From Candidatus Babeliales bacterium (GTDB lineage Bacteria > Babelota > Babeliae > Babelales > JANWKD01): a DNA stretch of 64,000 nucleotides. Shown here piece by piece: positions 2,454 through 52,500 of this stretch. The stretch spans positions 640,001 to 704,000 of the forward strand of contig OY969622.1 in NCBI GenBank assembly GCA_963701665.1, read 5' to 3'. A program made the translations under genes and the position numbers. Below the pieces are notes generated by a model. The model was not told the DNA's origin. It searched no databases and saw nothing but the letters and a program-made list of their open reading frames with translations. Numbering within the stretch: the first letter of the stretch is position 1; every line of letters begins with the position of its first letter.

Positions 2454-3191
2454 ATGAAACAAAAAAAACGCCTTGATCAACTTGTTCAAGAACGTAATCC
2501 TTCCTTGAGTAAAACATATATACAAAGTTTAATTATGCAAGGGAATGTTTTGGTGGATGGCAAAGTGTGCACCAAATCAGGCACGCAAGTGGCCGATGAG
2601 GTGGTTATTACCCTCGTTCAAAATGAACAAAAATTTGTTTCGCGCGCGGGTTATAAATTAGAAAAAGCACTCGACTTCTTCAAGGTAAACGCTCAAGACA
2701 GCATTGTTTTAGATGCGGGGCTATCCACGGGGGGATTTGCGGATTGTTTATTGCAACATGGTGCCAAAAAAATTTACGGCATTGATGTTGGCTACGGCCA
2801 AGCGCATGAAAAAATTCGCCGCGATCCGCGCGTTGTGGTGATGGAAAAAACAAATCTGCGCCATCTTGATGAGCTTCCCGAGCTTGTTGATCTCGTTACG
2901 CTCGATCTTTCATTTATTTCCGTTCTTAAAGTTATCCCTACTATAAAAAAACTTATGAAGCCCGAAGCGCATCTTATTGTACTCATAAAGCCACAATTTG
3001 AGGCCCGCCGTGAGCAGGTGGGTAAGGGTGGTATTATTAAAGACCCCAAGGTTCATGAAGAGGTAATTCATAACATTGTTCGAGGAATTACCCAAGAAGG
3101 CTTTTCATATCTTGGTGTTACTGATTCACCCATTACCGGTACTGATGGGAATAAAGAGTTTCTAGCCTATTTTAAAAAGAATATTGTTTAG
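2454..3191 (+). CDS. tlyA: TlyA-family rRNA 2'-O-methyltransferase
   Basis: S4 domain (KKRLD), FVSRAGYKL, LDAGLSTGGF, DLSFIS, LIKPQFE, GTDGNKEF. Confidence 0.95.
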   Translation: MKQKKRLDQLVQERNPSLSKTYIQSLIMQGNVLVDGKVCTKSGTQVADEVVITLVQNEQKFVSRAGYKLEKALDFFKVNAQDSIVLDAGLSTGGFADCLLQHGAKKIYGIDVGYGQAHEKIRRDPRVVVMEKTNLRHLDELPELVDLVTLDLSFISVLKVIPTIKKLMKPEAHLIVLIKPQFEARREQVGKGGIIKDPKVHEEVIHNIVRGITQEGFSYLGVTDSPITGTDGNKEFLAYFKKNIV

Positions 3192-4417
3192 CAATTATTC
3201 TTTATGTGATTAATTCTTTGAGTTACGGTGGTTGCTATTTTTTGTAGGGTAGCATCATAATGAAAACGATCAGGATGGAATTTTAATACTTTTTGCATAC
3301 ATGCTTGCTTAATGTCATTTTTTTGAGCAAACCGTGATATTTCTAAAAATTCTTCTCGTGATGTTTGCTTGATTATTTTATTGTACAATTCGCAAAGTTC
3401 TTGTTCTATCGGATTTTGGTATTTAGAAGAATCGATGAGTTTGCCATTATATTGATCTTTGTTTGTGGCATTATAGGTAGTATTGTTACTTTTTCTGTTT
3501 GTCTGGTCATTGTTATAATTATATGAATAGGATTTACTTGAATTTGAATACTCTTTTTTCCCATGAAGTGCATTATAAAATTCTTCGCATGAAGATGTAG
3601 TGAATGTTTCTTTGAATTCTGCTGTTTTAAATCTATCAAGAGGCATAGATGAATTTCTTGTATAGGTAGCTTCCTTACAAGGACGCTTCAAGATTAAGAA
3701 AATCTTTTGATATAATTCAAGGCGTGCTTTGCTTTTTTTATCAAGGTTTTGATAATTTTGCATCATCTGATCAATGTGAGTTTTGGCTTCAACATAAAAT
3801 GTGTAAAGATGCATTGGTTCAAAATGAGGCTGTAGCATTGCGAGTGCGCCAACATTTAAAGTTCTCACTGAAAGTAACAATGCATAGCCATCAATGTGGG
3901 CTCCATATTTAATGAATAATTCAATGATTTTTTCTTGATCTTTTTCTGGGAGATTTTGTGTTATTTTTATCGCAAAGCAGAGTGCATTTAATGATGTATA
4001 TTTTGACTCATAATTGATGAAACCTGTTTTTTGCATGTCTGCAAGAAGTTCTTCAAGGGTTAAGTAACTAAAAAGAGTAGATTTGCCATTTTTTATTTTT
4101 TCTTCGATAGCACCAAGCATACTGTGATAATAATTTGATTTGTAGTAGCTGATTTTATCTTGATAGGCTTCGTAAAATTTTTTAAAGCTATCGGCAAACC
4201 AAAATTGTGATGGTGAAGATGAGAATGTTCTATTTTTTAAAGAATGATGGTTGTATAAACTTGATGTTCGCCCTTCCAACGCAAAAGTGCTGCTTATATA
4301 TTTTGATAAAGTCGATAGAGAGCGTTCTCTTAGATGATATTTAGGCAATTTTGACATGCCAAAAAGAGATGAAGAACTAAATAATATAAGAATGAAAAAA
4401 AAGCTTTTAACCTGCAT
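3188..4417 (-). CDS. Exported protein with an ankyrin-like segment and C-terminal J-domain
   Basis: Signal peptide MQVKSFFFILILFSSSSLFG; KFHPDR J-domain motif near the C-terminus; ankyrin-like ALCFAI...IIELFIKYGA. Confidence 0.75.
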   Translation of the reverse strand: MQVKSFFFILILFSSSSLFGMSKLPKYHLRERSLSTLSKYISSTFALEGRTSSLYNHHSLKNRTFSSSPSQFWFADSFKKFYEAYQDKISYYKSNYYHSMLGAIEEKIKNGKSTLFSYLTLEELLADMQKTGFINYESKYTSLNALCFAIKITQNLPEKDQEKIIELFIKYGAHIDGYALLLSVRTLNVGALAMLQPHFEPMHLYTFYVEAKTHIDQMMQNYQNLDKKSKARLELYQKIFLILKRPCKEATYTRNSSMPLDRFKTAEFKETFTTSSCEEFYNALHGKKEYSNSSKSYSYNYNNDQTNRKSNNTTYNATNKDQYNGKLIDSSKYQNPIEQELCELYNKIIKQTSREEFLEISRFAQKNDIKQACMQKVLKFHPDRFHYDATLQKIATTVTQRINHIKNNC

Positions 4418-4680
4418 TTTTAACCCCATTTTTTTTATCAATATAAACATATATAAAATTAACTTATTAAAAAAATTATCATTTGTCAAATTTATGCCCG
4501 AATTTAACTAAATTATCCTATATATTTACATACTGAAATGACCATGATGTGGTCTTATTGACAGCCTGTAACATTCGCTGTTTTAGGGGTCATGATGCTG
4601 TATTTTAAATTATTGTCATAAAAGTGCATGATACGGTATGGTAAAGACAGAAGAAAAGATCATTTTCAAAGGGAGTGTGT

Positions 4681-5068: not shown

Positions 5069-5145
5069 GCGCCTGTAGCTCAATTGGATAGAGCAACGGA
5101 CTTCGAATCCGTAGGTTGCAGGTTCGACTCCTGCCGGGCGCACCA
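5069..5145 (+). tRNA. tRNA-Arg(TCG)
   Basis: Cloverleaf: acceptor GCGCCTG/CGGGCGC, anticodon arm ACGGA-CTTCGAA-TCCGT, T-loop GTTCGAC, encoded CCA. Confidence 0.97.
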
Positions 5146-6200: not shown

Positions 6201-6277
6201 GCGCCCGTAGCTCAGATGGATAGAGCGACAGATTCCTAATCTGTAGGTCACCGGTTCAAATCCAGTCGGGCGCACCA
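6201..6277 (+). tRNA. tRNA-Arg(CCT), integration target
   Basis: Acceptor GCGCCCG/CGGGCGC, anticodon arm ACAGA-TTCCTAA-TCTGT, T-loop GTTCAAA, CCA; one C-A mismatch in the T-stem. Confidence 0.95.
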
Positions 6278-7732
6278 GTTTCCAGTTTTTACCGTGTTCA
6301 TAATCTCATTGAACACGGGTTTCATCTCTACATCGAACTTTTCATCTTTGTATGAGCAGTTCAAAACTAAAAGGTCAATCAATCGTCGTTTTTGTTTGGT
6401 ATTTTGATTTTTAAACAGCCCAGCGGCTTTTTTGGAGAGTTCTAAGATAAGATTGGCATTTTCTAGGTAATGAGAATCAGCCCGTTGAGTAGCAAGCAAT
6501 TTTACCGTTAATTGTTCTTTTTCTTCGATCCATTCCTTGGTATGCTGCTGCCAAAATTCTTCACCAATCTTGTTATCAAGCTTGTCTAAATATGCTTGAT
6601 CAATGCGATTTTGCAGGACTTTAATATGTTTTTCCAATTGAAGCACTAAGTTATTATGATATTCTATCTTTTCTTTATGACTTTCGCGTAGCCCTTGCAA
6701 AATTTTTTCTTGAATTTCATCAGAAACTTGAATATCGTTCAAGAGGTCTTGAAAAGTATTTTCTATTAATTCTTGCCTTAGGTAATTTTGCTTGCAATTA
6801 CCCTTATACCCCGTGCAATGATAGTAAATATATTTTTCTTTCTGAATCTGTGCACTTAGAGAACAACTGCAAACTCCACATCGAATAAGATTAGAATAGG
6901 TAAAAAGGCCCTTTTTTGACTTGTTTTTATAAGGGTTTTTGAGAATTTTTTGTACTCTTTGGAACAAATCTTTACTTATTATTGGCGTATGTGAAGCACC
7001 TTCATATTTCTTACCTTTCCAGAAGAAGACACCGGTATAAAATTCATTTTTTAATATGATATCTAAAATGCTGGAATAGAAATTTTTTCCATTTCGATAG
7101 ATCATGCCATCAGCAATCATTTTTTTTCTAAGTGACTGTAATGAGTATGAACCTGTGGCATATAGCTCAAACATTGTTTTTACATATGGTGCTGTATTTG
7201 GGTCGAGTTTTATGATGCTTTTACCATTTTCTTTAACATTTATATATCCAAAGGGTGCCCATGATGGATATATACCCTGAGCAGCTTTTTCTGACATGCC
7301 TTTTTTAACTTCTTCGGAAAGATTATCTACATAGTTTTTGGCCATTAATGCTTTGATACCGAAAATAAATTTTTCATTAGAGCGTGAATCTTTACTAAGA
7401 ATTACATTTTCTTTGACAAGATGAACTTTGATATCAGAATATTCAATTACTCGATCAAGCAAAGCATAATCTGCTATATTTCTTAAGAGTCGATCAGTTT
7501 TTTCAACTAAGAAATGTTTAACATTTTTATTTTCTTCCAAGAAACTTAGCAGTTTATTGAATTGAGTTCGGCCTGCTTTTTTTGCTGTTTCGACATCAGT
7601 AAATTCTTCTACAATTCTAAAGTTATTTTTGGATGCATATTCTTTTAACAATTTGAGTTGCGCGGGGATGGAAAATCCTTCATTTTCTTGTTCTTTTGAG
7701 GAAACTCGGGCATAAATTATGGCTTTATTCAA
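6248..7732 (-). CDS. Large serine recombinase (resolvase + recombinase + Zn ribbon)
   Basis: IYARVSS catalytic motif, DRLLRN, APFGY, CGVC...YYHC Zn ribbon; 3' end antisense to the tRNA. Confidence 0.95.
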   Translation of the reverse strand: MNKAIIYARVSSKEQENEGFSIPAQLKLLKEYASKNNFRIVEEFTDVETAKKAGRTQFNKLLSFLEENKNVKHFLVEKTDRLLRNIADYALLDRVIEYSDIKVHLVKENVILSKDSRSNEKFIFGIKALMAKNYVDNLSEEVKKGMSEKAAQGIYPSWAPFGYINVKENGKSIIKLDPNTAPYVKTMFELYATGSYSLQSLRKKMIADGMIYRNGKNFYSSILDIILKNEFYTGVFFWKGKKYEGASHTPIISKDLFQRVQKILKNPYKNKSKKGLFTYSNLIRCGVCSCSLSAQIQKEKYIYYHCTGYKGNCKQNYLRQELIENTFQDLLNDIQVSDEIQEKILQGLRESHKEKIEYHNNLVLQLEKHIKVLQNRIDQAYLDKLDNKIGEEFWQQHTKEWIEEKEQLTVKLLATQRADSHYLENANLILELSKKAAGLFKNQNTKQKRRLIDLLVLNCSYKDEKFDVEMKPVFNEIMNTVKTGNWCARLDLNR

Positions 7733-8424
7733 ATGAGACCTAATATTTTAAAAATGTTGTTCCATTCATCTTTTGATGAGAAATTTTGAATATAAAAATT
7801 CTTTATGCGATCTATTTGCCAGTCTGTTTTATAATCTTCATTAGTATCAATAGCTACTAAAATAAAGTTACATTTAGGGAATTTAGCTGATAAAATGTTT
7901 CTCAATTTTATTATTTCATCCCTAGTTTGTGGGTTGAGATCTAAATTCCAAGGTCTTGTACCTGCGCTAAGTCTGAAAAAATATACCGTTTTTCCAGAAT
8001 TTAGTACGTTATAAAGTCGTTCGATTCTTCTATTATATTTTTCTGCTACATCTTCAATAAAGTCTAAATAATTTTCTTTTATGTACTCGACTCTACCTTC
8101 TGTTCGCTCTGCAGGAAAATCATGATGGAAAGCAATTGTATATTTTTTGTTAAGAATAAAAGTTTTTTCAAAGGTCAAATATTGTGGATTTAAAAAATCT
8201 GAAAAATCATCCTCAAATAAATCACATACACCATTAAAAGAACTACGAACCCAATCAAATGGAAAAGCAGTGCATCGAATATTATTGGTTCTGAGCATAT
8301 CTGCTGGCGTGCAACTAAATCCAAGACTTATAGTAATAGGATCGGGAAAGCTATCAAGGCTATTTTGTTCAAAGGCTATAGTTTTACAAACTATAAAAAA
8401 AATTAAAATTAAAGTCTTTTTCAT
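7729..8424 (-). CDS. DUF1796 putative papain-like cysteine peptidase, with signal peptide
   Basis: ISLG..C...LR....R..AFPFDW, F.HDF and KY.RRI.R motifs. Confidence 0.8.
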   Translation of the reverse strand: MKKTLILIFFIVCKTIAFEQNSLDSFPDPITISLGFSCTPADMLRTNNIRCTAFPFDWVRSSFNGVCDLFEDDFSDFLNPQYLTFEKTFILNKKYTIAFHHDFPAERTEGRVEYIKENYLDFIEDVAEKYNRRIERLYNVLNSGKTVYFFRLSAGTRPWNLDLNPQTRDEIIKLRNILSAKFPKCNFILVAIDTNEDYKTDWQIDRIKNFYIQNFSSKDEWNNIFKILGLI

Positions 8425-8449
8425 TTTTCTTCTTTATTGTTTAAAAAAT

Positions 8450-8492
8450 ATAGTCCCTTATAAGAGAGATAGAAACTCTTATAAGGGACTAT
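8450..8492. terminator. 17-bp-stem hairpin, probable terminator of the NUDIX-rSAM-MTase operon
   Basis: ATAGTCCCTTATAAGAG / CTCTTATAAGGGACTAT perfect inverted repeat just past the MTase stop. Confidence 0.7.
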
Positions 8493-8499
8493 TTTAAAT

Positions 8500-9333
8500 T
8501 TAGCTATTCTTTTCTGGAAAAATACCATTTAACGCTTGAAATATTTCTTGATTAAAAGACAACGTATTTGTTGATTGTTTGTTTCTAAAGCAAAACATTT
8601 TTGCATAAGCATCAGGAGTAAACTCTTTTTTTGATAAGACATCATCTTCTGCATTTAGACTTACAACTATATCATCAAAGTTATTTGGAGCAGCTCTAGG
8701 AGTTTCTGTTATAATTTCTCCATCCTGTCTACTTAATAAATATTTTTCGATAAATGGAATACTCGGCTCTTTTTCTGCGCGCTTATCGTTGAAGGGTGGT
8801 GTTTCGATAATAACCGTATCACCTAATTCAAAAATAACATCAGTAATTTCTTTCCAAGGACTCATATGGTGCAGGACATTTAATGCCAAGACAACATCAA
8901 AATGCTCATGTTTAGCTAATAATTGAAGATCTTCAAGAGAAAGAGCTCGTTTGAGGTAAATAAGATTTCGCACTTCTGTATTGAATTTGCAAATATTAGC
9001 TAATCTATCTGATAAATCGGCCATTACACAAGTTGCTTTAAAATCTTTTGCTAGCCTCAAGCTAAAGTAACCATTACTTGCACCAATATCAAGAATCTTT
9101 ATTGGTCTTTTATATTCAGCTAATGCCGCTTTTATTGCTTCATAACGTGAAGGACAGTCAGGACCAACTCCTTTAAAAATAACTTCATTATTTATCATAA
9201 TATCTTGATAAGGAAAATATCTTTCACATGAAAGTTTTTCTAGAATTTCTTCTTTGCTCATTACATCGCAAGCATATGAAGTACCGCTTGCTAGGATTAA
9301 AACCCCATAAATAAAAAATAATTTAGTTTTCAT
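8500..9333 (-). CDS. Class I SAM-dependent methyltransferase with signal-like N-terminus
   Basis: ILDIGASNGYFS motif I, FDVVLALNVLHH; ATG at 9333, one nt after the rSAM stop. Confidence 0.85.
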   Translation of the reverse strand: MKTKLFFIYGVLILASGTSYACDVMSKEEILEKLSCERYFPYQDIMINNEVIFKGVGPDCPSRYEAIKAALAEYKRPIKILDIGASNGYFSLRLAKDFKATCVMADLSDRLANICKFNTEVRNLIYLKRALSLEDLQLLAKHEHFDVVLALNVLHHMSPWKEITDVIFELGDTVIIETPPFNDKRAEKEPSIPFIEKYLLSRQDGEIITETPRAAPNNFDDIVVSLNAEDDVLSKKEFTPDAYAKMFCFRNKQSTNTLSFNQEIFQALNGIFPEKNS

Positions 9334-9334
9334 A

Positions 9335-10363
9335 TTAATTTTTCCCATGGTTACTATTGTGACTAAAATTGAAAGATTCATTTAACTTTTTAATTACAGA
9401 ATCAAAGTCCTTAACTACATTTCCCATTTTTACTTCTACAGGAAATCCATCCTCACCTTGCATAACTATATGGCTTTCACCATTTGGAAATACATGAAAA
9501 TATCGTCCAAAGGAATTTTGAAAAGGTTGCGATTCAATAGCAAATTCTGGATTTAGTAATTTTGTTTTTTGTACTATTTCGTTAAATTGGTTTGTAGTAA
9601 TTAACCAATCACCATTTAAAATATCATCTTTTCTTGGACCAACAGGACTAACCTGATATATTTTCCAGCGCATTTTTTTTGGCTCAATACCCGCTTCTAA
9701 CATAGTTTTACCAATATATGGTACAGAATCTATATTAGGAGCAGCGGCGACAGTTCTTACTGTAAGATTGGTTTTTTCAAAGTTTGTTTGTATAAACTTT
9801 ATTGCTTCTAACACCTTAGAAAAATGCAAAATCGTTCCAATACGCATAATCGCATTTATTTCTACGGTATGCCCATCCAAGGGTAATCCTACATCATTTA
9901 TAAATGGTAATATCGATGCACCTCTTTTAATCATGAGTAGGCCGTTGCTTGATAAGGTAGTGCGTAATCCTAATTCCGTTTTAGTATAACGTGCTAATTC
10001 AGGAAGTTCCTTTTTTAATAAAGTTTCTCCTCCCGTAAATACAACGTTTTTTGTGCCTAATCGCTTTAATTCATATGCTAAGTTTTTCCATTCATTTAAA
10101 GTTACGTCTTCTTTTGCATTATGAACAGGCCCCCAACACCATTTACAATTTAGATTACAAACACCGTTAATGTTCATATCAACTGTTTCAGGAGCACGGT
10201 AATACATTGAACTTAAAGTTGTTAACTTTTTTTGTTGCATTAAAGGGAAAATTGTAGATAAAAGTTGTGTTGATTTTTTAGTTTTTAACACATTTGAACA
10301 AACTTCTTGTCCCTTACATGCAAAACAAAATAGCAATAGTATAGAAAGTCTATGTAGATGCAT
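9335..10363 (-). CDS. Radical SAM enzyme with viperin-like features
   Basis: CNLNCKWC, VVFTGGE, LSSNG, LPLDG and RWKIYQ motifs; hydrophobic N-terminal extension. Confidence 0.85.
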   Translation of the reverse strand: MHLHRLSILLLFCFACKGQEVCSNVLKTKKSTQLLSTIFPLMQQKKLTTLSSMYYRAPETVDMNINGVCNLNCKWCWGPVHNAKEDVTLNEWKNLAYELKRLGTKNVVFTGGETLLKKELPELARYTKTELGLRTTLSSNGLLMIKRGASILPFINDVGLPLDGHTVEINAIMRIGTILHFSKVLEAIKFIQTNFEKTNLTVRTVAAAPNIDSVPYIGKTMLEAGIEPKKMRWKIYQVSPVGPRKDDILNGDWLITTNQFNEIVQKTKLLNPEFAIESQPFQNSFGRYFHVFPNGESHIVMQGEDGFPVEVKMGNVVKDFDSVIKKLNESFNFSHNSNHGKN

Positions 10364-10786
10364 TTATTGTTTTCTTTCGAGATACAAAACATTTTCAAAA
10401 TAGTTTTTGAGAATGTTCTTGTGAGGATTAAATAGTTCTTCTGGTAAATTCGTGAGAGAAAAAAACTTCCACTCATAACAAAGGTCGGGCTCCATATTTT
10501 TGATTTCACCCAAAAATTTTTCAAGCAAAAAAGATATATGAATATAATGACCACGCTCATCAATACAATCCGCTACACTAATTAATCTAAACTCCAAGCC
10601 TTCAATATCTATTTCTTCTTTTAATTCTCTTCTAACGCACTCTCTTATTGATTCGCCTTGTTCTAAATGACCACCTGGCAACCCCCACATTCCTTCGCCG
10701 TAACAATTCTTTCTTTTTCCTAATAAAATGGCATCATTTTTTATTAAAAAAATCTCACATCCAACTTTAATATTTTTGTTGCTCAT
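10364..10786 (-). CDS. NUDIX hydrolase (MutT/NUDT15-like)
   Basis: Nudix box GGHLEQGESIRECVRRELKEE; ILLGKRK and MEP..C.EW motifs. Confidence 0.9.
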   Translation of the reverse strand: MSNKNIKVGCEIFLIKNDAILLGKRKNCYGEGMWGLPGGHLEQGESIRECVRRELKEEIDIEGLEFRLISVADCIDERGHYIHISFLLEKFLGEIKNMEPDLCYEWKFFSLTNLPEELFNPHKNILKNYFENVLYLERKQ

Positions 10787-10943
10787 GACTTACCTTTATA
10801 TATATTTCTAAATTTTTTCTCTAAGAATCATACGTTAAAACGCTTAAAAGGTAAAGGCTGCTAGTCGGTTTAATGGTTTGACTTTTTCTCAGATAATGAC
10901 ACTCTTAATTTTAAAATTAACCTTTTAGGAGAAATGATTACAC

Positions 10944-11120
10944 ATGAAAAATACTGAATCTAAAAAATCAAAAACTACAATTTACATGTCTGAAGAAGAT
11001 GAGACACTTCTTGATGAAGTCTTTATAAAGCGCATTAGAGATCGCAAAAAAACAGATCGATCAACACTTCTTTGCGAAGGCATTAGACTTCTGTATAAAA
11101 AAGAAATAGACCCAAACTAA
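10944..11120 (+). CDS. Small ribbon-helix-helix (CopG-like) regulator, 58 aa, not in the ORF track
   Basis: MKNTESKKSKTTIYMSEEDETLLDE...DRSTLLCEGIRLL; AGGAG upstream; divergent from the NUDIX operon. Confidence 0.7.
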   Translation: MKNTESKKSKTTIYMSEEDETLLDEVFIKRIRDRKKTDRSTLLCEGIRLLYKKEIDPN

Positions 11121-11162
11121 AATTTCTCCATAAAAAGCTAACTCTTGTTTAAGAGATATTTA

Positions 11163-11657
11163 ATGAATTTTATATATGCGCCTGGTCGTTCATCTTATTT
11201 TAAAGATGGATCTTTAAAGACAAAAAAAAGAGAGTCTTGTCTCTTTTGCGAAAAGATTGCACAAGAAAATGACCGTGAAAATTTAATTTTAAAACGGACT
11301 AAAAATTCGGTTATTATGTTGAATTTATATCCATATAATGCGGGTCATATTTTGGTATTGCCTTATATGCATACTGCTGAATTATCAATTTTATCACAAG
11401 AAGATCGTTCTCAGTTAATGGATGATATTAATCATTCTGTTTTGAAACTAGAAGCAGTTCTTTCTTGTGAAGGCATTAATATAGGGATTAATAAAGGCAA
11501 GGTATCAGGTGGAAGTGTCGCTGATCATTTACATGTTCATGTTGTTCCTCGTTATAGTAACGATACAAATTTTATGATGGTTTGTGATGCTACTAAAGTT
11601 GTAGGAATGTCACCATTGCATATGTATGATATTTTAAAAAAACATTTCGATGAATGA
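11163..11657 (+). CDS. HIT-family hydrolase (Ap4A phosphorylase-like)
   Basis: CLFC, LNLYPYNAGHILV and HLHVHVVPR motifs. Confidence 0.92.
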   Translation: MNFIYAPGRSSYFKDGSLKTKKRESCLFCEKIAQENDRENLILKRTKNSVIMLNLYPYNAGHILVLPYMHTAELSILSQEDRSQLMDDINHSVLKLEAVLSCEGINIGINKGKVSGGSVADHLHVHVVPRYSNDTNFMMVCDATKVVGMSPLHMYDILKKHFDE

Positions 11658-11757
11658 TATTAATCATAGGTTGTAATGCTTAATTGTTTGGCTTATTTAC
11701 TTCCATGCCTAAAATTTATCTATTTTAGAAAAGATAACATTTGATTAATTCAAATAG

Positions 11758-12945
11758 TTAGTTTTTATCTGATTGAGCAAAATCACAATATTCACAAATT
11801 CGATTAGTAATTTGATCTTTTGATATTATGGGCGGCTTTGATTGATTTAAACAACTTCTCATATTTTTAATTGTATTTTGAACCCATGAATCATCTATCT
11901 CATAACTTGATATTGATACATAGCACTTTAAATTTTTATCAAATGGCATAAATGAGTATTGGTTTTCTCCTACATTTATATAAAAGAAATAAGCTTTTGT
12001 AGAAACTGCGTATCCATTTTTTTTAAATAACCATGTATAATATGCAACCTGACGTCTATAATTTTCATACCAAGCATCACTTGTTATGCATATATTTACT
12101 CCTTTTGCAGTTGTTTTATATTCAACAATTATTAGTTCATTTTGATTATTTATCCAAACATCATCAACACTACCAAACAAATCAAAATTTGTTTGGTAAT
12201 CATAAAATCTGATTCCTCCATCATAGACATCAATATTATTTTTTTTTCGTTTAGTAGTTTGCCATTTCTTTATAGAATTATACTTATCATTATATGGAAC
12301 CGCATCAATTCCATGATTAGCCATAAATTGAGGATGAGCCTTCCATTTTCGAAAAAAATTCATTTCATTTTTTACTAATTCATCAATTTTTGTAGTTATT
12401 TTAAAAGACTCAGGATCAATACCAGGTCGTTTTTTCCCTCGTTTCAATTCCCTATAAAAACATCTTTGACATTGCAAAAAAAGACTTATTTGCTTCCAAC
12501 TTATTTCTCGCAATCCATCCTGCAAAATAAGTTTCTCTCGCCATTTGAGTTTTGGTATGGCAATACCTGTCATTACAATATATGATTTCATTTTCAAATA
12601 AATAAAATGGTGGCTATTAATATCAATATTAAAACCAATCAGCTCACTAATTTCAATCCATTGATTTGAACTTCTGTGCAATAAAATTGTGCTTAAAATT
12701 TGCATTCCATTTTCATCAATACGTAAACCCTGAAAAATTGATAAGCCATTCTCCTCCAGAAAAGGTCTTGTTGCTATTATAATACATCGAAAGTCTTCAA
12801 TTATACTTTTATAATTACGTAAACCTAATTGCATTTTGATACGAGCTTTAAATAAAGCCGTAGTTAATTCATCAATATTATCAGATTGATAATAAGCGGA
12901 AAATTCGCCTTGCAGGTCTTCAATATGAGATTCAAGATAGACCAT
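11758..12945 (-). CDS. ERF-like domain fused to a PD-(D/E)XK (RecB/Cas4-like) nuclease
   Basis: N-terminal ELTTALFKA...NGLSIFQ...STILLH.S.QWI; C-terminal CQRCFY, GSVDD, IIVEYKT, QVAYY, CEYC. Confidence 0.75.
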   Translation of the reverse strand: MVYLESHIEDLQGEFSAYYQSDNIDELTTALFKARIKMQLGLRNYKSIIEDFRCIIIATRPFLEENGLSIFQGLRIDENGMQILSTILLHRSSNQWIEISELIGFNIDINSHHFIYLKMKSYIVMTGIAIPKLKWREKLILQDGLREISWKQISLFLQCQRCFYRELKRGKKRPGIDPESFKITTKIDELVKNEMNFFRKWKAHPQFMANHGIDAVPYNDKYNSIKKWQTTKRKKNNIDVYDGGIRFYDYQTNFDLFGSVDDVWINNQNELIIVEYKTTAKGVNICITSDAWYENYRRQVAYYTWLFKKNGYAVSTKAYFFYINVGENQYSFMPFDKNLKCYVSISSYEIDDSWVQNTIKNMRSCLNQSKPPIISKDQITNRICEYCDFAQSDKN

Positions 12946-12948
12946 AAT

Positions 12949-13389
12949 CTATTTAACAACTAAGCCAATAATAGAAATGTAAGATTGCATTCGTAAGAAT
13001 GTTAAATATTTTATGGGATCTTTTTCTTCCCATTCTGAATCACCAAATAATTCGTATGCCGAAACCCATTGTCCAGATTTATGCAGAAGTATTGTTCGTA
13101 GTATTTTATGTCCTACATCATCTCTTTGAATTAATTGCGTAACCGCAAGACCATTTTTGACTAATGCAAATCTAGAAGCTTTTATTACGTCCCCAAAATC
13201 CTCCAAAATATCAGGAAAACAATTTTTTAAAATAGGTGTACCTATTTCTGCTTGAGCAATTGATAATGCGCTCCCCAGTTCATTTAATTCAGCAGAACAA
13301 TGAATATCATTTGAAAAATTTTTATTAAATATTTCATTAGAAAATTCATTATGTTCAAATCCAATAGCATCAATCAATATATCATTCAT
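12949..13389 (-). CDS. ERF-superfamily ssDNA-annealing-like protein
   Basis: ELGSALSIAQ.E...L.KNGL.V.Q...LRTILLHKSGQW pattern. Confidence 0.7.
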   Translation of the reverse strand: MNDILIDAIGFEHNEFSNEIFNKNFSNDIHCSAELNELGSALSIAQAEIGTPILKNCFPDILEDFGDVIKASRFALVKNGLAVTQLIQRDDVGHKILRTILLHKSGQWVSAYELFGDSEWEEKDPIKYLTFLRMQSYISIIGLVVK

Positions 13390-13582
13390 GTATAAAACCC
13401 CTAAAAAGAAATAATAATTTTTATTATTTTACACAGATAGAAAATATATGCAAATTTATCAATTAAATTAAGGGTTTTTTTATATTTATATATATACAAC
13501 AAGATATGTAAATGCTTTTTCAGAATGATTTGTGTAATATTAAAAATATTATTATCTATATATTTCGATAAAGGAGAAAGTT

Positions 13583-14233
13583 TTGACTCATTGGGGTTGG
13601 TACTGGAGGATAAAGCAAAAACACATAGCAAGGGCTCTATGCTCTAAATTACCCACGATTGATTCATTTAAGTTGGCGCAGCATATTAAGGCTATGGTTG
13701 GATTTACCGTGCAACCTTTAGGGGTTAAAGCTATAATTCAAGACAATATTTTGAAGGTTATCTATAGAAAGCGCAAAGATTGTTCTTATATTATCCTTAT
13801 CGATAAGCAGCCCTGCAACTACGGCGGATTCCGTTACTTCTTCAGATGTCCCTTATGCCAGAGACGAATGCGGATACTCTATTTTGCAGAGCAAAGTATT
13901 TTTCTTTGCCGTAAATGCTTAAACCTAAGCTATGAAACCCAACATTTAAGGCCAACTAAGCGCTATGACTATATGAGTAAAAAAGTTAAAGATGGTATAA
14001 AAGACAAACAAGGCGATCTAGAACTTTCCAAAAAACCACCTCGAATGCATGAAGATAAATATCAAAAACTTAAAGATAAGCAATTTTATTACGAATGCAA
14101 ATCAAATCAGGCGTTTAACAACGAACTAAGAGAATGGTATGGTGCAAAAATTGAGCCTTATATCGATTGCTATTTTGATTATGTGGATGAAAGTAAGGGT
14201 TGGCAGAAAAATTACCGTGCATTGAATAAATAG
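13583..14233 (+). CDS. Zn-finger protein of a type common in genomic islands
   Basis: PCNYGG.RYFFRCP.C.RR..ILY...CRKC.NL.Y.TQ; start uncertain. Confidence 0.7.
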   Translation: MTHWGWYWRIKQKHIARALCSKLPTIDSFKLAQHIKAMVGFTVQPLGVKAIIQDNILKVIYRKRKDCSYIILIDKQPCNYGGFRYFFRCPLCQRRMRILYFAEQSIFLCRKCLNLSYETQHLRPTKRYDYMSKKVKDGIKDKQGDLELSKKPPRMHEDKYQKLKDKQFYYECKSNQAFNNELREWYGAKIEPYIDCYFDYVDESKGWQKNYRALNK

Positions 14234-14260
14234 TTTTTTTGTCATGATTGCTCTTTCATT

Positions 14261-15487
14261 TTATATCGTTATTTCAATGATCTTTCTCATCAATCTTAAG
14301 CCTTGTTGTAGTTCACCAGTTTGAGCTCGAGGTGAATTTAGGCCTACATTGATTTCTTGCTCAAGTTTATCATAAGCATATCGCGTAATTGTTCGTTCGC
14401 TAATGTAATGCAGTATCCAATTAACCAGCTCCTGATCTTCTTGATTCCATAAAAGTTTTATTAAGTTTAAGTCACGTTGCATTTGAGTTGATAACTTTTC
14501 TATAATCCAAGATCTAACATCAAAGCCTTGCTGTATAGCTTCTCCAATGTCTTTACCAATTGTAGTCGGATAACTTTGTGCATGAGAGTAAAGTGCTTTC
14601 CATTTATCGAACATAATGCTTCCAGCACTGTCGTTATCATGGCAAATCAGTAAAACAGTTTTATGTTTGGCAAGATAATCAGTTGTAGGATCTGGATTTT
14701 TTGTACAACCACCAATAGCTATAATAACGGCGAAATCACCTACTGCATGATGCAATGCATATGCGTCTAATTCAGACTCAACAACGATCATGATAGGGTT
14801 CTTCTTATTGCCAATTATATTAAGGCCTTTCATGCTTCCCGATATTGCAATATATTTAGGCCATTCATCATCTATTTTCCAATTCTTCCGTCGGATCTTT
14901 AATCTTATGACATTTTCATTTTTTTCTATGGCAGGTATAAGTATTCCTGCTGGAAACCAGATTGTTTCTTTGTCTAATCCCCAAGCAGCTCCTTCAAAAT
15001 TTTTGTCCTCTGAAAGCCAACTTATTTTATAATTTTTAATTGCCTCAATGGGCAGGCCTCGCTTATCTAGAATTTGCAAAATATCTTTTTGTAATAGCAC
15101 GCAATCATGCGCTTCTTGAACAAGTTTGTTTGCTTGTTGAATCCAAAGAATAGATGGTTTATCAAGGAGCATAACGGAATTTTTACTTTTTGTGTTTGCA
15201 AAAATAGTTGGCATTTTATCAGCAAGTTTTGCTTCAACATATTTTTCAGCTTCTTTGAAGTTGGTAAAACCAAGATAATCTAAACAAAATTGAATAGAAT
15301 CACCGCGAGCATTACATTGTCGACAAAAATAATAACCTGTACAATTTTTCATTTGTTTGTTGGGTTGTATAACAAATCTATCTGATCCGCCACACACTGG
15401 ACATGGTGAATGATATTCACCGCCCTGGGTATTAGCTGCTCGTTTGGCAATAAGCCCTTTTTCGTGAACAAGATCTAGGAGATCCAT
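14261..15487 (-). CDS. Primase (P4-alpha-type Zn ribbon + TOPRIM)
   Basis: GEYHSPCPVCGG.DRF...YFCRQC...GD; TOPRIM IVVESELDA, HDND.AG, KDIGE. Confidence 0.88.
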   Translation of the reverse strand: MDLLDLVHEKGLIAKRAANTQGGEYHSPCPVCGGSDRFVIQPNKQMKNCTGYYFCRQCNARGDSIQFCLDYLGFTNFKEAEKYVEAKLADKMPTIFANTKSKNSVMLLDKPSILWIQQANKLVQEAHDCVLLQKDILQILDKRGLPIEAIKNYKISWLSEDKNFEGAAWGLDKETIWFPAGILIPAIEKNENVIRLKIRRKNWKIDDEWPKYIAISGSMKGLNIIGNKKNPIMIVVESELDAYALHHAVGDFAVIIAIGGCTKNPDPTTDYLAKHKTVLLICHDNDSAGSIMFDKWKALYSHAQSYPTTIGKDIGEAIQQGFDVRSWIIEKLSTQMQRDLNLIKLLWNQEDQELVNWILHYISERTITRYAYDKLEQEINVGLNSPRAQTGELQQGLRLMRKIIEITI

Positions 15488-15524
15488 TTTTCATTCCTTT
15501 ATTTGATCATTGTGATAATAATCA

Positions 15525-15643
15525 CGTGGTATTGGTGGATTTCGTGGCTTTGATTTATATCTTTCATAAAAAACAACAATAAATATTCAGACAAGTTTTT
15601 AGGAACAAACAAAAACAAATCCACCATATCAACCAATACCACG
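15525..15643. promoter_or_regulatory. Putative replication origin of the element
   Basis: CGTGGTATTGGTGGATTT faces AAATCCACCA and ACCAATACCACG across an AT-rich spacer, between the helicase-like and primase genes. Confidence 0.5.
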
Positions 15644-15652
15644 GTTTTAATA

Positions 15653-17461
15653 TCAAATCTTTCTAATGCGCCACAAAGATGTCCCTTGATGTATGCCATT
15701 TTGTTCTAAGCGTAAGCCGCCCTCTATACGATTTTTGTAGAGCGCTAATTTTTTTGCCAAACTCCGTTGATTAATGGCGCCATTCTTATCGCCAGCTAGC
15801 TCAAGTAGTGATTCTTGAAAAGTTTCTTTTATTTCATCATTATCATCATCATCGATAGCATTATTAACTTGTATAGAATTCATATTCTTAAGTTCTTTTA
15901 ACTTAATAGATCGATCGCCAAAAATTTTATACCAAGTCATGAACAATGAATTTAACATGATTCTTATAGGGTCATTATTCTGTATATCTTTTCGAGTTTC
16001 ATATGGATCGGCCATGCCGAGCCAAACAATTGCAGATCGAATCCAACGGTTCCATTCTTCAAATCTTCCAAATTGCTCAATATTCTGGACTGGACTTCCG
16101 GCAACATGATAAGCACGAAGAATAATTAAACCCGCCAGAACAAGTTTATTACGATTTTCAGGAATATATTTTCGTAGGTCTATTGCAAAAGATCGTTCTT
16201 CAGGATGTTCAACTTGAGGATCAAGTTTGCATAATAATGCTCTTGTGGAAATATCGCCCATAAAAATTAGATTGTTTCCCGTTACAAGAAAAGTTGCAGT
16301 GGTGAGTACTGTTCTTGTTTCATTTCCTCCCAAGAGACGATCTTTGTATTCTTGTTGAGTTAAAATAGAACATAAAGCAGCGCTCTTGAACGGTTTTTCT
16401 ACGTTGTCATAACAAACAATAGGATCGCCCTCAATTAAAACTGCCATGATACGTTTTTTTTCTTCAGTTTCGTTTTCTGCTTGAGCAATTACACTATTGG
16501 GTTTTCCTGTAGCAATAAGTGAAACAACATCCGCCAAAAGACTTTTTCCGCTGGCCATTTTAGGCGCTGTAAAACCGAATAATGGTGCCGTTGTAATAGA
16601 TCTTCTAACAAGAGCGGTAAGAATTGCAGCAAGTGTAACTGATTTACTTGCGGCATTTTCGAAAGGAAACTCTTCTAAGATTTTCAGCAGTTCATCTTTA
16701 GCTCTTTGAGCATCTTCCAATGTAGGCTCTGTTGGAATTTTACCAAATGTATAATTACCCGGAAAAAACAAAAGGCCTGAAGCATCATCATAACCAGGTT
16801 CATCTAAAATGGAGCAATCTGCACGCAGTGTAGGAGCATTAATGATTCCTGTTAGCACGGGTATATTCCATTGTTGTTTTGCAAGCAAATATTTAGAAAT
16901 TCTTTCTGGGCAATCAATTTTTTTAAACTTTCCTGTACGAGTATCAAAATTTAAAAAATTTCCACGTTTAGTCAGATGTACTGTTAAAAACGCTTGGTCA
17001 ATTTCTTTAATAATTACGGCATCATGTGATCTTTTTATCAGTATTCTTTTATTGATTGGAGAGTGTAAAATTTTTGCGATATGAACCAATTTTCCAGATC
17101 TTTGATAGATATGATCTTCCCGCGATAGGAGCAATTTTTCTGCATCTTCTACAACTTCTGGCAACTTTGAGGGCTCAAGATATATTGTACTTTGAAATGA
17201 ATGTTTTTTTGTTTGATATGTTTTATAAGATTCTTGTAAACTAAGAACTTGTGATGCTTCGGCCTGACCTAAATCTTCAATTGATAATACGAATAAATTT
17301 TCCCATGATGTATCGCCATAACCAAACTCTGCTTTTTTTGTATTAAGATCATTCTCTTCATTTATTAATTCATCGTATTCGGAATTACGAATCTCTTGGT
17401 AAAATGATGTTACGCTGTTAGTTTTTTGCTCTTTTTTGATATTTTTGCTATCATTACTCAT
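15653..17461 (-). CDS. Primase-associated P-loop ATPase / helicase-like replication protein
   Basis: Walker A APKMASGKS, Walker B-like IVCYDNV, TGNN, R-finger-like STR. Confidence 0.75.
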   Translation of the reverse strand: MSNDSKNIKKEQKTNSVTSFYQEIRNSEYDELINEENDLNTKKAEFGYGDTSWENLFVLSIEDLGQAEASQVLSLQESYKTYQTKKHSFQSTIYLEPSKLPEVVEDAEKLLLSREDHIYQRSGKLVHIAKILHSPINKRILIKRSHDAVIIKEIDQAFLTVHLTKRGNFLNFDTRTGKFKKIDCPERISKYLLAKQQWNIPVLTGIINAPTLRADCSILDEPGYDDASGLLFFPGNYTFGKIPTEPTLEDAQRAKDELLKILEEFPFENAASKSVTLAAILTALVRRSITTAPLFGFTAPKMASGKSLLADVVSLIATGKPNSVIAQAENETEEKKRIMAVLIEGDPIVCYDNVEKPFKSAALCSILTQQEYKDRLLGGNETRTVLTTATFLVTGNNLIFMGDISTRALLCKLDPQVEHPEERSFAIDLRKYIPENRNKLVLAGLIILRAYHVAGSPVQNIEQFGRFEEWNRWIRSAIVWLGMADPYETRKDIQNNDPIRIMLNSLFMTWYKIFGDRSIKLKELKNMNSIQVNNAIDDDDNDEIKETFQESLLELAGDKNGAINQRSLAKKLALYKNRIEGGLRLEQNGIHQGTSLWRIRKI

Positions 17462-17514
17462 ATGAAATCCTTAAATTTATAAGCCATCAATCAGCATTGA
17501 TGGCTTTGCTTTTT

Positions 17515-17781
17515 TTACTGATGTGTCACTTCTTCAAGTTTTACTATGATTGCCTCTTCTATATGTTTTGCTATTGATTTATTAATGGGATGAAAGATAT
17601 TGAGATTTCCGCTTGAACTTTTGCGTGTTGGGTATGTTATTCTGTATCCTCCGGCGGGCCGAGTATAAATTCCTATGCCTCCTAGATAAAAACTGTTATC
17701 AAAAACAATACTTGCAAATCCAACAAGGCCATCTATAGGTTTAATAGGAGTTATCTGAATTTCGCTGATTTTGTTTTTCAT
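17515..17781 (-). CDS. SpoVG-like nucleic-acid-binding protein
   Basis: ISEIQI......L.GFASIVFD..F.L.GI.I......Y.I.YP....F.PI pattern. Confidence 0.75.
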   Translation of the reverse strand: MKNKISEIQITPIKPIDGLVGFASIVFDNSFYLGGIGIYTRPAGGYRITYPTRKSSSGNLNIFHPINKSIAKHIEEAIIVKLEEVTHQ

Positions 17782-17932
17782 TCGTATACCCTTTCGATAC
17801 GTTTTCATTTTGGTCCCATTCCATAAGCAATGAAAAAAAATCAACAACTGGCTTATACTCGTCGATTAGCCAAGGTTGAGTTTCTTTTTGGGATGCATAA
17901 ATGTGCGTGATAATATTTTTTTTCTTTTTCAT
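17741..17932 (-). CDS. Small hypothetical protein
   Basis: AGGGG RBS; co-oriented with the replication module. Confidence 0.45.
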   Translation of the reverse strand: MKKKKNIITHIYASQKETQPWLIDEYKPVVDFFSLLMEWDQNENVSKGYTNEKQNQRNSDNSY

Positions 17933-18048
17933 ACCCCTTACTATTGCAAAAAGTGTGGTATGAGAAGCGCTGAGCGTACGCCCGGCGTAAGTATTGAGAA
18001 GATTGTTAGCAAGAGGGGATATGCTACAGACTTTGTTCTTATAGAGGT

Positions 18049-49555: not shown

Positions 49556-52500
49556 ATGAAACTGTTTTCAAGATCGTTGAGTGCCATACTATTTATGTCA
49601 TTACTATGGGTAGTACCATATATTTTCATACAACATAGTTACGCAATGGAAGCTGTAATAATAGAAGAAGGCATTAGTAGGTTGGGACTAGGACTTGAAG
49701 AAACTGCAGCAAGGGGGATGGCTGAAGCTGCAGAAGAAGCATTTGGAAGAGTTACTGGTGCCGAGTTAGAATCTGCAGGTGCAGGTATTAGAGGAGCGTT
49801 GGATACAAGTCTTGAAAAAGGACTAGCTAATCTTAAAGAAGAGATTGGGGCACTGAAAGCTGCTGGTAAAGAATTGACGCCGGAAAACTTGAAAAGTGCA
49901 GCGGCTAAAGCATTCGGCGATCAAAAATCCGTTTTTAGCAAAGATGTTGAGGGTATTTTCAAAGAACAAGGTGGATTTAGTCCTGCTGACAAAGCAGCGC
50001 TTAAAAGTGTTTTGCCTGAAAGTGCTTTTAGAGGCGAACCTATTCCTAATGTTTTAGCTCAAGGAAAAGTGCTTTCTGTCGACATAAAAACATTACCAGC
50101 AGTAGATCAGGCTACAAGCAAAAGTCTAGTTGCTTTTGATGAGGTTGAAGCTTCCGGTAAAAACTTGGAAGCTTTAAAAGAAGGTGGCGGAACAGAAGCG
50201 GAAATAAAGGGTGCCGAGGGTGAACTAAAAACTGCAAAAAGTGATTTAGCAACAGATCAACAAGCCAGAGCTACTCAAAGTGATACAGAAGTTAGTGCAG
50301 CCCAAAAAAAAGTTAACGCAGCGCAAGAAAAATTTGATAAAGCTACAACGATAGAAGGAAAAAGGGCGGCAGGTGAAGAATTATCGCAAGCGAAGAATGA
50401 GTTAAATGAAGCGGGCAAAGTAAAAGCTGCCGATAATAATGTAACCTACAAGCAGAAATGGCAAGAAGCAAGAAATGAGCGCATGGATAAACTTAGTGCA
50501 AATAAGCAGGCAGAGAAAGAATTAGGGGATGCTAAAACTGCTCGAAAAGCCCTTGATAACGATCCTAATGCGACGGCTGAACAAAAAGCTGCTGCGGATA
50601 AAACTGTTACTGAAAAGCAAGGTGCGGCTGAAAAAGCCGGAAAAGAATTAAAAGCCGCTGATGAGGCAGTCGTTAAACAAGAAAATGAGTTGATGGAAAA
50701 CTCTAGTATGTGGGGCGATCCCCGTAAAGGGCCCTTAGTTAACCGGGAGCACATAGAAATCACAGGTTCACGTATGGGGCGAAGTTCATGGGATGCATTA
50801 ACGGGTACTCCAAAATGGATTGGTTCAAAATTATGGGGCGGTATTACTGGCGCCATTGATCAAATGCTTATTGCCCTGTGGTTCACCGTGCCAAATATGG
50901 TAATCGAGGCATATAACACGGCTCAGGCAAAGAAAAAATTATTAGAGACGCAAAAAAAATATCAACAATGGGGTGGCATGTGGCTGAAAATTCCTGATTT
51001 CTTTATCAATGAAAATGAGCCTGCGAATTCTCTCCATATTTATGTCGGTGTCCCTAATGACGGCTTTCCAATCACTGAAGAGTTTTTAAAAACTGCAAAT
51101 TATTTTGTCGTGAAATCGGATTATGCGCCATGGGGCAGTTCATCTATCTTTGATAGTGTTTCTGCTATGGTGCATTTAAATACGGGTTATGTTTTTGTCA
51201 GTGATGGGCAACCTGCTGATCCAGATGAACCTACTATGCCTTTTGGAGAAATGGCAAAAGATCAAGCAGGCTTAATTGGACATCTAGATGATTTATCAGG
51301 AAAGGCAGGTACAGGGTTAAAAACTGAAGGTGTTCAATACTATGTTGATAGTTATGAAGCAGGATATAAAGGCAGTCATCTTGTTGCTACATTATTCAAA
51401 TCGAAGGGGGAGCCAGGGTCTGAACAAGAGCTAACACTTGAAATGATGCCACCGATTCTTGTGCCAACCTTTAATGCCTTAAAAGGTGGTACCAATTTTG
51501 GTACTGATAATGCAGGAAAGCCGCTGTATTTAGTCGAAGCTTTTAAAGGGTTCAATAAATCCGATCAAGATAACGGTAAGCAACTTATGGAAGCGCTTAC
51601 CGGAGCGCCACTTGATGATCCTTCTAATGAAGCTGCAGATGATGATAATTATGTTTTGCAAGGTGTGTATATTTATCAGACAAAAGATACACCCATTGTT
51701 GATCTGGTCAAAAAACAAATTTCAGCCAATGATCCGCAAGGGCAAATGCTCCGTGACGCTGTTACTGATTATGTGGTAATGCTTAATAGAGATAATAAGG
51801 TTGTGCCGCTTATGACGCCGCAGCCGATGGTGTTGCCTCCCGGTTCAAAAGATTCTGCTTTTGTACATTATGCGCTTAATCCAAGAGCCGATAAAATGAA
51901 AAGTTTAATTGATGGCGGTAGTAAAGCATATGATGCACATGGTAGCACTGAAGATGCGTCTATTCCAGATAAGCTTTCTGCTCCTGAAAGAATTGCTACT
52001 CAAATTAAAGCAATGCAAACATTCTTTGATACAAAAATTAAATATGGGCCGTTTACCTTTGGTGGTACAACGCTTACTATTGATAAACCTCTCGCTGACG
52101 CAAATGTTTTTGTATATAAAGCTGCTGGATTCTTGGAAGGTGGTTTTGATGATTATTTGATTGCTGTTGAAGCAGTAAAAGATGAAAAAACCGGAAAAAC
52201 AGTATTGGCAGTTACTTCTTTACCATCTAATGGGATTGCATGGTTTGTTAGTTTAGTTACTTCACGGTTCTACGATAAAAATTTACAACCATTTGCGCCA
52301 CCAATTGCACCAGAAAAAGATTATTACATTACGAAAGATAACACAGTTGCTACGGGCAAACCATCTGATGGTTCATTACCACAAGCACAAGCACCACTTT
52401 ATACTTTATTTGTGCAAGGTGAATATAATCCAAGTCCTAAACCAGCAGGCTATATTAATAAAGCTAATAAAAGTTGTAGTACATGTTTACCTATTGGTGC

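Follow-up and report, generated by a model that had tools for sequence, protein, structure and literature searches.

Domain order of a Babeliales J-domain gene

The window analyzed here, the whole 64,000-nucleotide stretch from positions 640,001 to 704,000 of contig OY969622.1 (assembly GCA_963701665.1, Candidatus Babeliales bacterium), contains a minus-strand gene, P0001, whose product combines a predicted signal peptide with a stretch resembling a mitochondrial presequence and a C-terminal J-domain. The initial annotation had read this arrangement as a bipartite-targeted effector engaging host mitochondrial Hsp70 (mtHsp70). The genome (G000) is 1.34 Mb long, 37% G+C, and 93.6% complete; the three best of five relatives of its DnaA (69 to 84% identity) are labeled Candidatus Babeliales, it encodes four ATP/ADP translocases (TLC), and by our own rule 482 of its 1147 genes (~40%) start with a signal-peptide-like leader. 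The Babeliales are an order of the Babelota (Dependentiae, TM6) and parasitize protists. The features of P0001 are as follows.

3188..4417, minus strand: P0001 gene (signal peptide, presequence-like stretch, ankyrin-like core, linker, and J-domain), 409 amino acids (aa), with full-length relatives at 31 to 42% identity
4358..4417, minus strand: predicted Sec-type signal peptide, residues 1 to 20, cut before Met21 (sequence, cleavage-site matrix, leader kept in homologs)
4226..4357, minus strand: presequence-like stretch, residues 21 to 64, bounded by the predicted MPP cut after Thr64 (composition; pLDDT below 50 over residues 15 to 71)
4214..4231, minus strand: R-10 motif, R63-T-F-S-S-S68 (motif as defined in PMC3578813 and PMC7996597)
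4202..4225, minus strand: predicted MIP/Oct1 octapeptide, residues 65 to 72, whose removal would leave Trp73, at which the first predicted helix begins (AlphaFold2 and motif)
3557..4201, minus strand: folded core, residues 73 to 287, with ankyrin-repeat-like helices (~93 to 244) and a beta-hairpin (246 to 276) (AlphaFold2, structural matches)
3446..3556, minus strand: disordered Asn/Ser/Tyr-rich linker, residues 288 to 324 (pLDDT below 50; sequence)
3191..3445, minus strand: J-domain region, residues 325 to 409, ending after the helix behind HPD (profile, fold)
3269..3277, minus strand: HPD motif, residues 381 to 383 (sequence)

The open reading frame (ORF) is read from the ATG at 4417, with further in-frame starts upstream at 4429, 4450, and 4489. 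Its leader has the features of a substrate of Sec and signal peptidase I (a basic n-region, a hydrophobic h-region, and a small residue at position -1), and the cleavage site scores 15.9 against a median of 8.6 with a matrix of our own that was trained on G000 itself, making the comparison partly circular. The leader and the Met behind it are kept among the homologs of P0001. The Met that the initial annotation had placed after the signal peptide is thus present but is not special to this gene: under an unbiased site call, three relatives have Met directly behind the predicted cut in 140 of 628 secreted proteins, as opposed to 7 to 32 at other offsets. Given this lineage-wide trait, the best reading of Met21 is that of an N-terminus newly created by cleavage.

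Composition of the exposed N-terminus

The 48 residues from Met21 (base 4357) contain 4 Lys, 4 Arg, 12 Ser, and 2 Glu and end in R-T-F-S-S-S, exactly as first counted. Serine accounts for 25% of this acid-poor stretch, and the first 40 mature residues, whose exposure hinges on the predicted cleavage, carry a net charge of +4 with two acidic residues (D/E). By itself, this composition is only moderately unusual. Its net charge falls within the top 9.8% of a background of 985 secreted proteins (drawn from the whole of G000 and parts of its relatives G108, G109, and G241; about 3.7 Mb from the four genomes were scanned whole), in which the first 40 mature residues average a net charge of -0.7 (SD, 3.45) and 5.1 D/E. 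Among the 280 proteins of G000 with a signal peptide plus Met, 22 have a net charge of at least +6, of which 8 have at most two D/E and 2 have at least 12 Ser. The rule of net charge of at least +4 with at most two D/E is satisfied by 56 of the 985 background proteins, and by none of them once R-x-F-x-x-S is also required at mature positions 31 to 75.

A conserved character and an R-10 motif

Relatives were sought in 261 genomes of the phylum and among 1.84 billion representatives, the latter giving 13 matches, and a family of 16 aligned rows resulted. L021, P0010, P0011, and P0014, which match mostly through the J-domain, were left out; L020 ends at a contig edge without its N-terminus, so that 15 rows are usable, and L026 and L039 are the weakest members. 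With mature starts placed by eye, all 15 rows carry a net charge of +4 to +9 and zero to two D/E in the first 40 mature residues, and 14 have at least one basic residue within the first six. The segments contain 2.1% D+E, 9.1% R, and 16.9% S, compared to 12.8%, 2.5%, and 6.5% in the core, and they are only 14% identical, compared to 27% for the core, with 5 of 105 segment pairs aligning above z = 3. What is conserved in these segments is their overall character and one motif, with the consensus R-x-F-S-x-S.

This motif corresponds to the R-10 signal, R-x-(F/L/I)-x-x-(T/S/G)-x-x-x-x, which is recognized by MPP and then by MIP (PMC3578813, PMC7996597). Scored strictly as R-x-[FLI]-x-x-[STG], it is present in 10 of the 15 members versus 3.4 expected (0 of 2000 shuffles, the number used for all expectations below) and at 13 sites versus 3.8 (0/2000); these counts are overstated by the common ancestry of the homologs, and they show conservation under selection rather than independent trials. 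No enrichment was detected in the family for the reversed motif, a Lys version, or three shifted spacings. R-10 is matched in enrichment by a fourth spacing variant, R-x-[FLI]-x-[STG], because the family stretches are rich in serine.

The position of the motif is also constrained. The distance from the motif Arg to the first conserved Trp is 12 residues in seven members and 10 in P0001, so that the predicted removal of the octapeptide stops where the folded core begins. In an AlphaFold2 model of P0001 built from the 16-sequence alignment (mean pLDDT, 76.5), residues 15 to 71 and 288 to 324 are disordered and the remainder is folded; the N-terminal disorder (pLDDT below 50) extends to residue 71, with the first post-leader helix beginning at 73. 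The processing motif that the initial annotation had described as R-x-F-S is therefore present and is better read as an R-10 site, for MPP followed by MIP, at the boundary of the folded core.

Word-based protein searches with P0001 returned only P0001 itself and one known homolog, and pattern scans of metagenome and genome contigs gave 582 and 51 pattern matches, none of which was confirmed as a relative. Foldseek found no match at E ≤ 0.001 with either model, and the ESM Atlas yielded nothing better than leads under 0.9 (clusters of ankyrin plus DnaJ), with no usable match for residues 21 to 95. Of 18 weak matches to a profile of the core (A2), L039 fits the family and the others are generic ankyrin proteins, mostly lacking such a stretch when judged by eye. 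The gene at G000:C1:970228-971556 was considered as a paralog of P0001 and rejected: it has a presequence-like start, and paralogy was not shown (probability, 1.8%). Adjacent to the G108 homolog, L018:1-1482 carries a presequence-like stretch of its own on an unrelated cargo, behind a nearly identical leader start, which suggests that a leader-plus-presequence module has been copied between genes.

The ankyrin-like core and the J-domain

The top 50 structural matches of the P0001 model are mostly ankyrin domains (Z, 7 to 9.6, middling values for helical repeats). The best clean matches to the core are V-1/myotrophin (Z, 9.1; root mean square deviation [rmsd], 2.7; 105 residues aligned) and the ankyrins of glutaminase (Z, 9.0; rmsd, 2.6; 88 aligned). 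P0001 itself has no Pfam ankyrin match; among its homologs, L019 exceeds the cutoff for Ank_2, and P0008, P0012, and P0013 fall under it.

The C-terminal HPD J-domain named in the initial annotation was recovered by both profile and structure, with HPD at residues 381 to 383 of a J-domain fold. The family profile matches J-domain structures with E values down to 3.6e-11, and the model aligns with xRbj over 71 residues (Z, 8.2; rmsd, 2.6). With P0005 represented by its full-length cluster mate P0018, a J-domain is present in 10 of the 16 family rows. The Pfam DnaJ (PF00226) cutoff is passed by P0007 (32.5 bits), P0009 (41.8), and L026 (35.6) but not by P0003, P0004, P0006, or L018.

Twelve ORFs in G000 have J-like matches. 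One is the canonical DnaJ, and ten leader-bearing ones other than P0001 lack a basic, acid-free stretch when judged by eye. At G000:C1:245656-256742, five leader-bearing genes in tandem encode N-terminal J-like domains, with HPD kept in two and lost in three.

Presequence-like N-termini in unrelated families

A second family was seeded with L145 of G108, picked for its presequence-like look, and was sampled at 30 excised loci and 3 further ones. Relatives of L145 occur in 64 of the 261 genomes, and no Pfam family exceeds its cutoff in the three members scanned. With 7 rows open at the 5' end and 8 lacking a leader call, 24 rows could be called, 13 of which are presequence-like and 11 of which are not. 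Strict R-10 occurs in 8 of the 13 presequence-like members versus 2.5 expected (0/2000), at 11 sites versus 2.9 (0/2000). When a single member is taken from each supported subclade, it is retained in 5 of 8 (6/2000), at 7 sites versus 1.6 (1/2000). On the tree of the shared domain, the presequence-like label requires five changes, at least two of which are forced by strong branches, so a single recent origin does not account for it. Several members have a glycine-rich hydrophobic segment directly behind the stretch; precursors of inner-membrane proteins likewise place a hydrophobic segment right behind the presequence. Loci of this family include L145:4523-6841, L114:17385-19790, L115:1953-3995, L233, L235, L249, and L253, some with leader, stretch, and Gly-rich segment and others with none of these.

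Outside the P0001 family, a C-terminal J-domain is paired with a presequence-like stretch in L021, L277, and L280 (open at the 5' end) but not in L279. A methyltransferase-like protein (L207:23-1285; G000:C1:1330623-1331885, minus strand) has a leader, an Arg-rich acid-free stretch, and a glycine-rich hydrophobic segment. Members of a third candidate family were detected in 25 of the 261 genomes; of the four that could be read, two are presequence-like and two are not. Two further minus-strand genes of G000, L208:28-1356 (G000:C1:970228-971556, the rejected paralog) and L209 (478045-480087), have presequence-like starts behind a leader and no Pfam family over the cutoff. When the second family is included, motif enrichment across unrelated members of the class, i.e., those with a presequence-like stretch behind a leader, is borderline (9 versus 4.5; P = 0.038, uncorrected for nine motifs).

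Export and a possible route to the matrix

The export components of G000 include two secretins, two type II/pilus ATPases, and two signal peptidase I genes, the last in tandem at G000:C1:911724-913352. Genes of the VirB4 type (PF03135) and the FlhA/SctV type (PF00771), one marker family per system, were not found in the 93.6%-complete genome. Two secretin genes have been reported for TM6 genomes (PMC4776705), and type II secretion is the only system found in Babela (PMC4378268). Within its host, Chromulinavorax is cytoplasmic and enveloped by a mitochondrion that is intact and expanding (PMC6561590), making access to mitochondria plausible for the G000 organism.

A five-step route would be consistent with these features. 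Sec export and a signal-peptidase cut before Met21 would expose a eukaryote-style N-terminus. The protein would then be released into the host cytosol through the type II secretion system or in outer-membrane vesicles, and residues 21 to 64 would direct import by TOM/TIM23. MPP would cut after Thr64 and MIP/Oct1, with a second cut behind Phe72, would take off residues 65 to 72, leaving the core intact from Trp73; the motif and the boundary are observed, and the cutting is predicted from them. Finally, the ankyrin-like core would bind a target in the matrix or inner membrane, and the J-domain, on its flexible linker, would bring in mtHsp70, a role assigned from the general action of J-domains.

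The domain order, composition, motif, motif position, and conservation of P0001 are direct observations. The presequence that the initial annotation had proposed behind the signal peptide is supported at the level of sequence, its character being kept in 15 of 15 nearly unalignable homologs, with R-10 in 10 of them and the pattern replicated in an unrelated family, and P0001 is likely imported into host mitochondria. Given import, its J-domain is probably active in the matrix. For the whole chain of export, import into the matrix, and recruitment of mtHsp70 by the J-domain, sequence statistics and the predicted structure lead us to lean toward its being correct. Of the proposed bipartite-targeted effector, then, the targeting half appears to hold, and the engagement of mtHsp70 is the weaker half, with helix II degenerate and the J-domain missing from some family members.

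Evidence against import and alternative explanations

Several observations weigh against this interpretation, beyond the shared ancestry behind the shuffle counts. Presequence-like composition shows no clear genome-wide excess, occurring in 12 of 430 mature N-termini versus 50 of 2284 internal windows and, in a second count, in 23 of 989 versus 64 of 6179 internal windows and 43 of 1554 nonsecreted N-termini. By charge, P0001 ranks among the bottom two of its family, and amphipathicity is weak in both the protein and its family: its hydrophobic moment of 0.66 is in the top 6% of the background, with z = 1.47 relative to shuffles and a family mean z of 0.69. Strict R-10 is absent from 5 of the 15 family members, 19 other unrelated members of the class have no significant excess of it (6 versus 3.1; 134/2000), and only 3 of the 17 callable homologs of the L207 methyltransferase are presequence-like (two rows without a leader call having been dropped). 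Type II systems export folded proteins, and import requires unfolding. The J-domain of P0001 scores 20.6 bits for Pfam DnaJ, below the cutoff of 27.8, and its helix II is degenerate, reading A-C-M-Q-K-V where the genome's own DnaJ has A-Y-R-K-L-A; two Lys are retained, Tyr-Arg-Lys is changed to Cys-Met-Gln, and the Tyr is kept in six of nine rows. Lastly, 6 of the 16 family rows have the presequence-like stretch and no J-domain, indicating that the J-domain is an accessory module, the main cargo probably being the ankyrin-like core.

These last points bear most directly on an alternative in which the protein is imported and the effector function lies in the ankyrin-like core, with the J-domain either decayed or acting on cytosolic Hsp70 before import. 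It would account for the rows that retain the stretch alone and for the Cys plus uncharged residue that both P0001 and P0003 have where a canonical helix II has Tyr-Arg, and there is a precedent in HopI1, a J-domain effector that relocalizes largely cytosolic Hsp70 (PMC8150971). We nonetheless regard it as unlikely: HPD is intact in all nine J-bearing rows of alignment A6, three homologs (P0007, P0009, and L026) pass the Pfam DnaJ cutoff, and such a stretch is also coupled to a C-terminal J-domain in Babeliales proteins whose middle parts are unrelated or multi-ankyrin (L021, L277, and L280, not L279).

The stretch could also serve as a disordered regulatory tail in the host cytosol, as a basophilic kinase site, a 14-3-3 docking site, or a basic arm binding membranes or nucleic acids, with the J-domain working with cytosolic Hsp70. 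The mode II pattern of 14-3-3 proteins, R-x-[FY]-x-[ST]-x-P, is found in P0001 and four more of the 15 members, five in all versus 0.1 expected; there are 31 R-x-x-[ST] sites versus 19.5 (7/2000), and the enrichment of R-x-[FLI]-x-[STG] equals that of R-10 in this family. The would-be phosphosite is, however, Gly, Ala, or Ile in three members, and Ser or Gly is kept at the R-10 position. None of the 13 presequence-like members of the second family has the 14-3-3 motif, and R-x-x-[ST] is at chance there (11 versus 12.7), whereas R-10 is enriched. Moreover, such sites would not seem to need acid depletion across 50 to 70 residues at the extreme mature N-terminus, and a regulatory tail is in our view improbable as the function of the stretch.

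Still less probable is that P0001 never reaches the host cytosol and is instead a periplasmic or surface protein resembling a cochaperone, its basic stretch being a linker or bacterial propeptide that looks like a presequence by chance. With leaders on ~40% of genes, a leader alone is no mark of an effector, and the composition by itself shows no clear genome-wide excess. Cleavage is also uncertain, since Pro, which is unusual before a signal peptidase I cut, occupies position -1 before Met in 16 of the 280 predicted leaders of G000. Chance resemblance does not fit the enrichment of R-10 at its exact spacing in two unrelated families, and we know of no ATP or Hsp70 in the periplasm on which a J-domain could act. 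Nor do other bacterial or export signals fit: a prepilin-type site (G-F-x-x-x-E) is contradicted by a variable residue before the Phe and the lack of a Glu after it, and a PEXEL-like motif, R-x-L-x-[EQD], occurs at chance level.

A plastid transit peptide for a photosynthetic host is scarcely credible, although P0001 shares with transit peptides their serine richness and paucity of acidic residues. HopI1 offers a chloroplast-associated J-domain effector (PMC8150971), but basic residues within the first six mature residues and the MPP/MIP motif suit mitochondria, and the isolates described in the literature consulted infect amoebae or a heterotrophic flagellate.

Relation to known effectors and significance

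Effectors that enter mitochondria and effectors with J-domains are each known already, from type III or type IV systems. Ats-1 of Anaplasma phagocytophilum, once delivered to the host, enters mitochondria by means of an N-terminal sequence and is cleaved inside them (PMC2824752), as proposed for P0001. Unlike P0001, it is a type IV substrate with its targeting sequence at the true N-terminus; the stretch in P0001 is masked behind a predicted Sec signal, and the cargo is ankyrin-like plus a J-domain. Like P0001, HopI1 of Pseudomonas syringae has its J-domain at the C-terminus. HopI1 binds host Hsp70 and stimulates it at an organelle (PMC8150971), as envisaged for P0001, but it is type III secreted and acts at chloroplasts on largely cytosolic Hsp70; the two are compared here by description rather than by sequence. 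Since type III and type IV marker genes were not found in G000, P0001 belongs to neither the Ats-1 nor the HopI1 group.

Eukaryotic matrix precursors of the R-10 type share with P0001 a basic, hydroxyl-rich, acid-poor N-terminal stretch of 10 to 80 residues that ends in R-10 (PMC3578813, PMC7996597); P0001 differs in being bacterial, in exposing its stretch only after leader removal, in its weak amphipathicity, and in that its processing is a prediction. MceC, a mitochondrial effector of Coxiella burnetii, combines a predicted signal peptide with glycine-rich membrane segments like those of our second family, but according to its authors it has no classical mitochondrial targeting sequence (bioRxiv 10.1101/2020.05.28.121236).

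Closer to home, the secretomes of Babela massiliensis and Chromulinavorax destructans include many ankyrin proteins with signal peptides and extra DnaJ-domain proteins (PMC4378268, PMC6561590), and Chromulinavorax remodels mitochondria, the only mitochondrial candidate named for it being a mitofilin-like protein (PMC6561590). As far as their available text goes, these accounts do not mention a presequence behind a signal peptide (PMC4378268, PMC6561590), and the available part of PMC12172432 holds nothing on such presequences. Across titles and the opening lines of abstracts, a sample with few subscription journals and apart from the Babela and Chromulinavorax supplements, which may list targeting predictions, we found none described in the phylum.

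If P0001 is imported as proposed, a presequence hidden behind a Sec signal, with a full two-step processing motif and reused over unrelated families, would constitute a new route into mitochondria. It would also bear on the open question of mitochondrial remodeling by Chromulinavorax, for which the mitofilin-like gene has so far been the sole candidate (PMC6561590). A simple rule would find such effectors: remove the signal peptide and score the N-terminus that is exposed, whereas predictors run on the full-length protein likely miss them. A broader model, which could as easily be wrong as right, is that Babeliales use a masked address system in which leader removal exposes a Met-starting, eukaryote-style N-terminus whose following residues decide where in the host each secreted protein goes. 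A swappable MPP/MIP presequence, sometimes with a Gly-rich anchor, would send unrelated families to mitochondria, P0001 would take over mtHsp70 from within the matrix, and the effectors so far missing for the mitochondrial remodeling seen in the phylum would come from this class.

Other mature N-termini and neighboring features

Under a site call with a bonus for Met, 338 of 989 predicted mature secreted proteins (G000 and the same parts of G108, G109, and G241) start with Met, which is followed by Glu in 161 of the 338. Starts of Met followed by Glu, Asp, Asn, or Gln are typical substrates of eukaryotic N-terminal acetylation, and with Met-Glu so frequent, leader cleavage may imitate a host N-terminus. 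Other secreted proteins begin with clusters of Lys and Arg that resemble nuclear localization signals, at G000:C1:446148-447608, 447635-449122, and 605995-607326 and at 60987-61640 of the window; one such protein, a LigD 3'-phosphoesterase, has both a leader and a start rich in Lys.

P0001 has no evident link with its gene neighbors (a TlyA-like methyltransferase, a tRNA-Arg gene, and a recombinase island), and the neighborhood of the G108 homolog is unlike its own. Elsewhere in the window, positions 49556-55837 hold an ORF of 2093 aa that has no Pfam match at E ≤ 0.01. Two tRNA-Arg genes lie at 5069-5145 and 6201-6277, the second overlapped by a large serine recombinase at which a stretch of lower G+C content (~30 to 35%) begins. 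This stretch (6248-18000) contains primase-like and other mobile-looking genes and is probably an integrated element.

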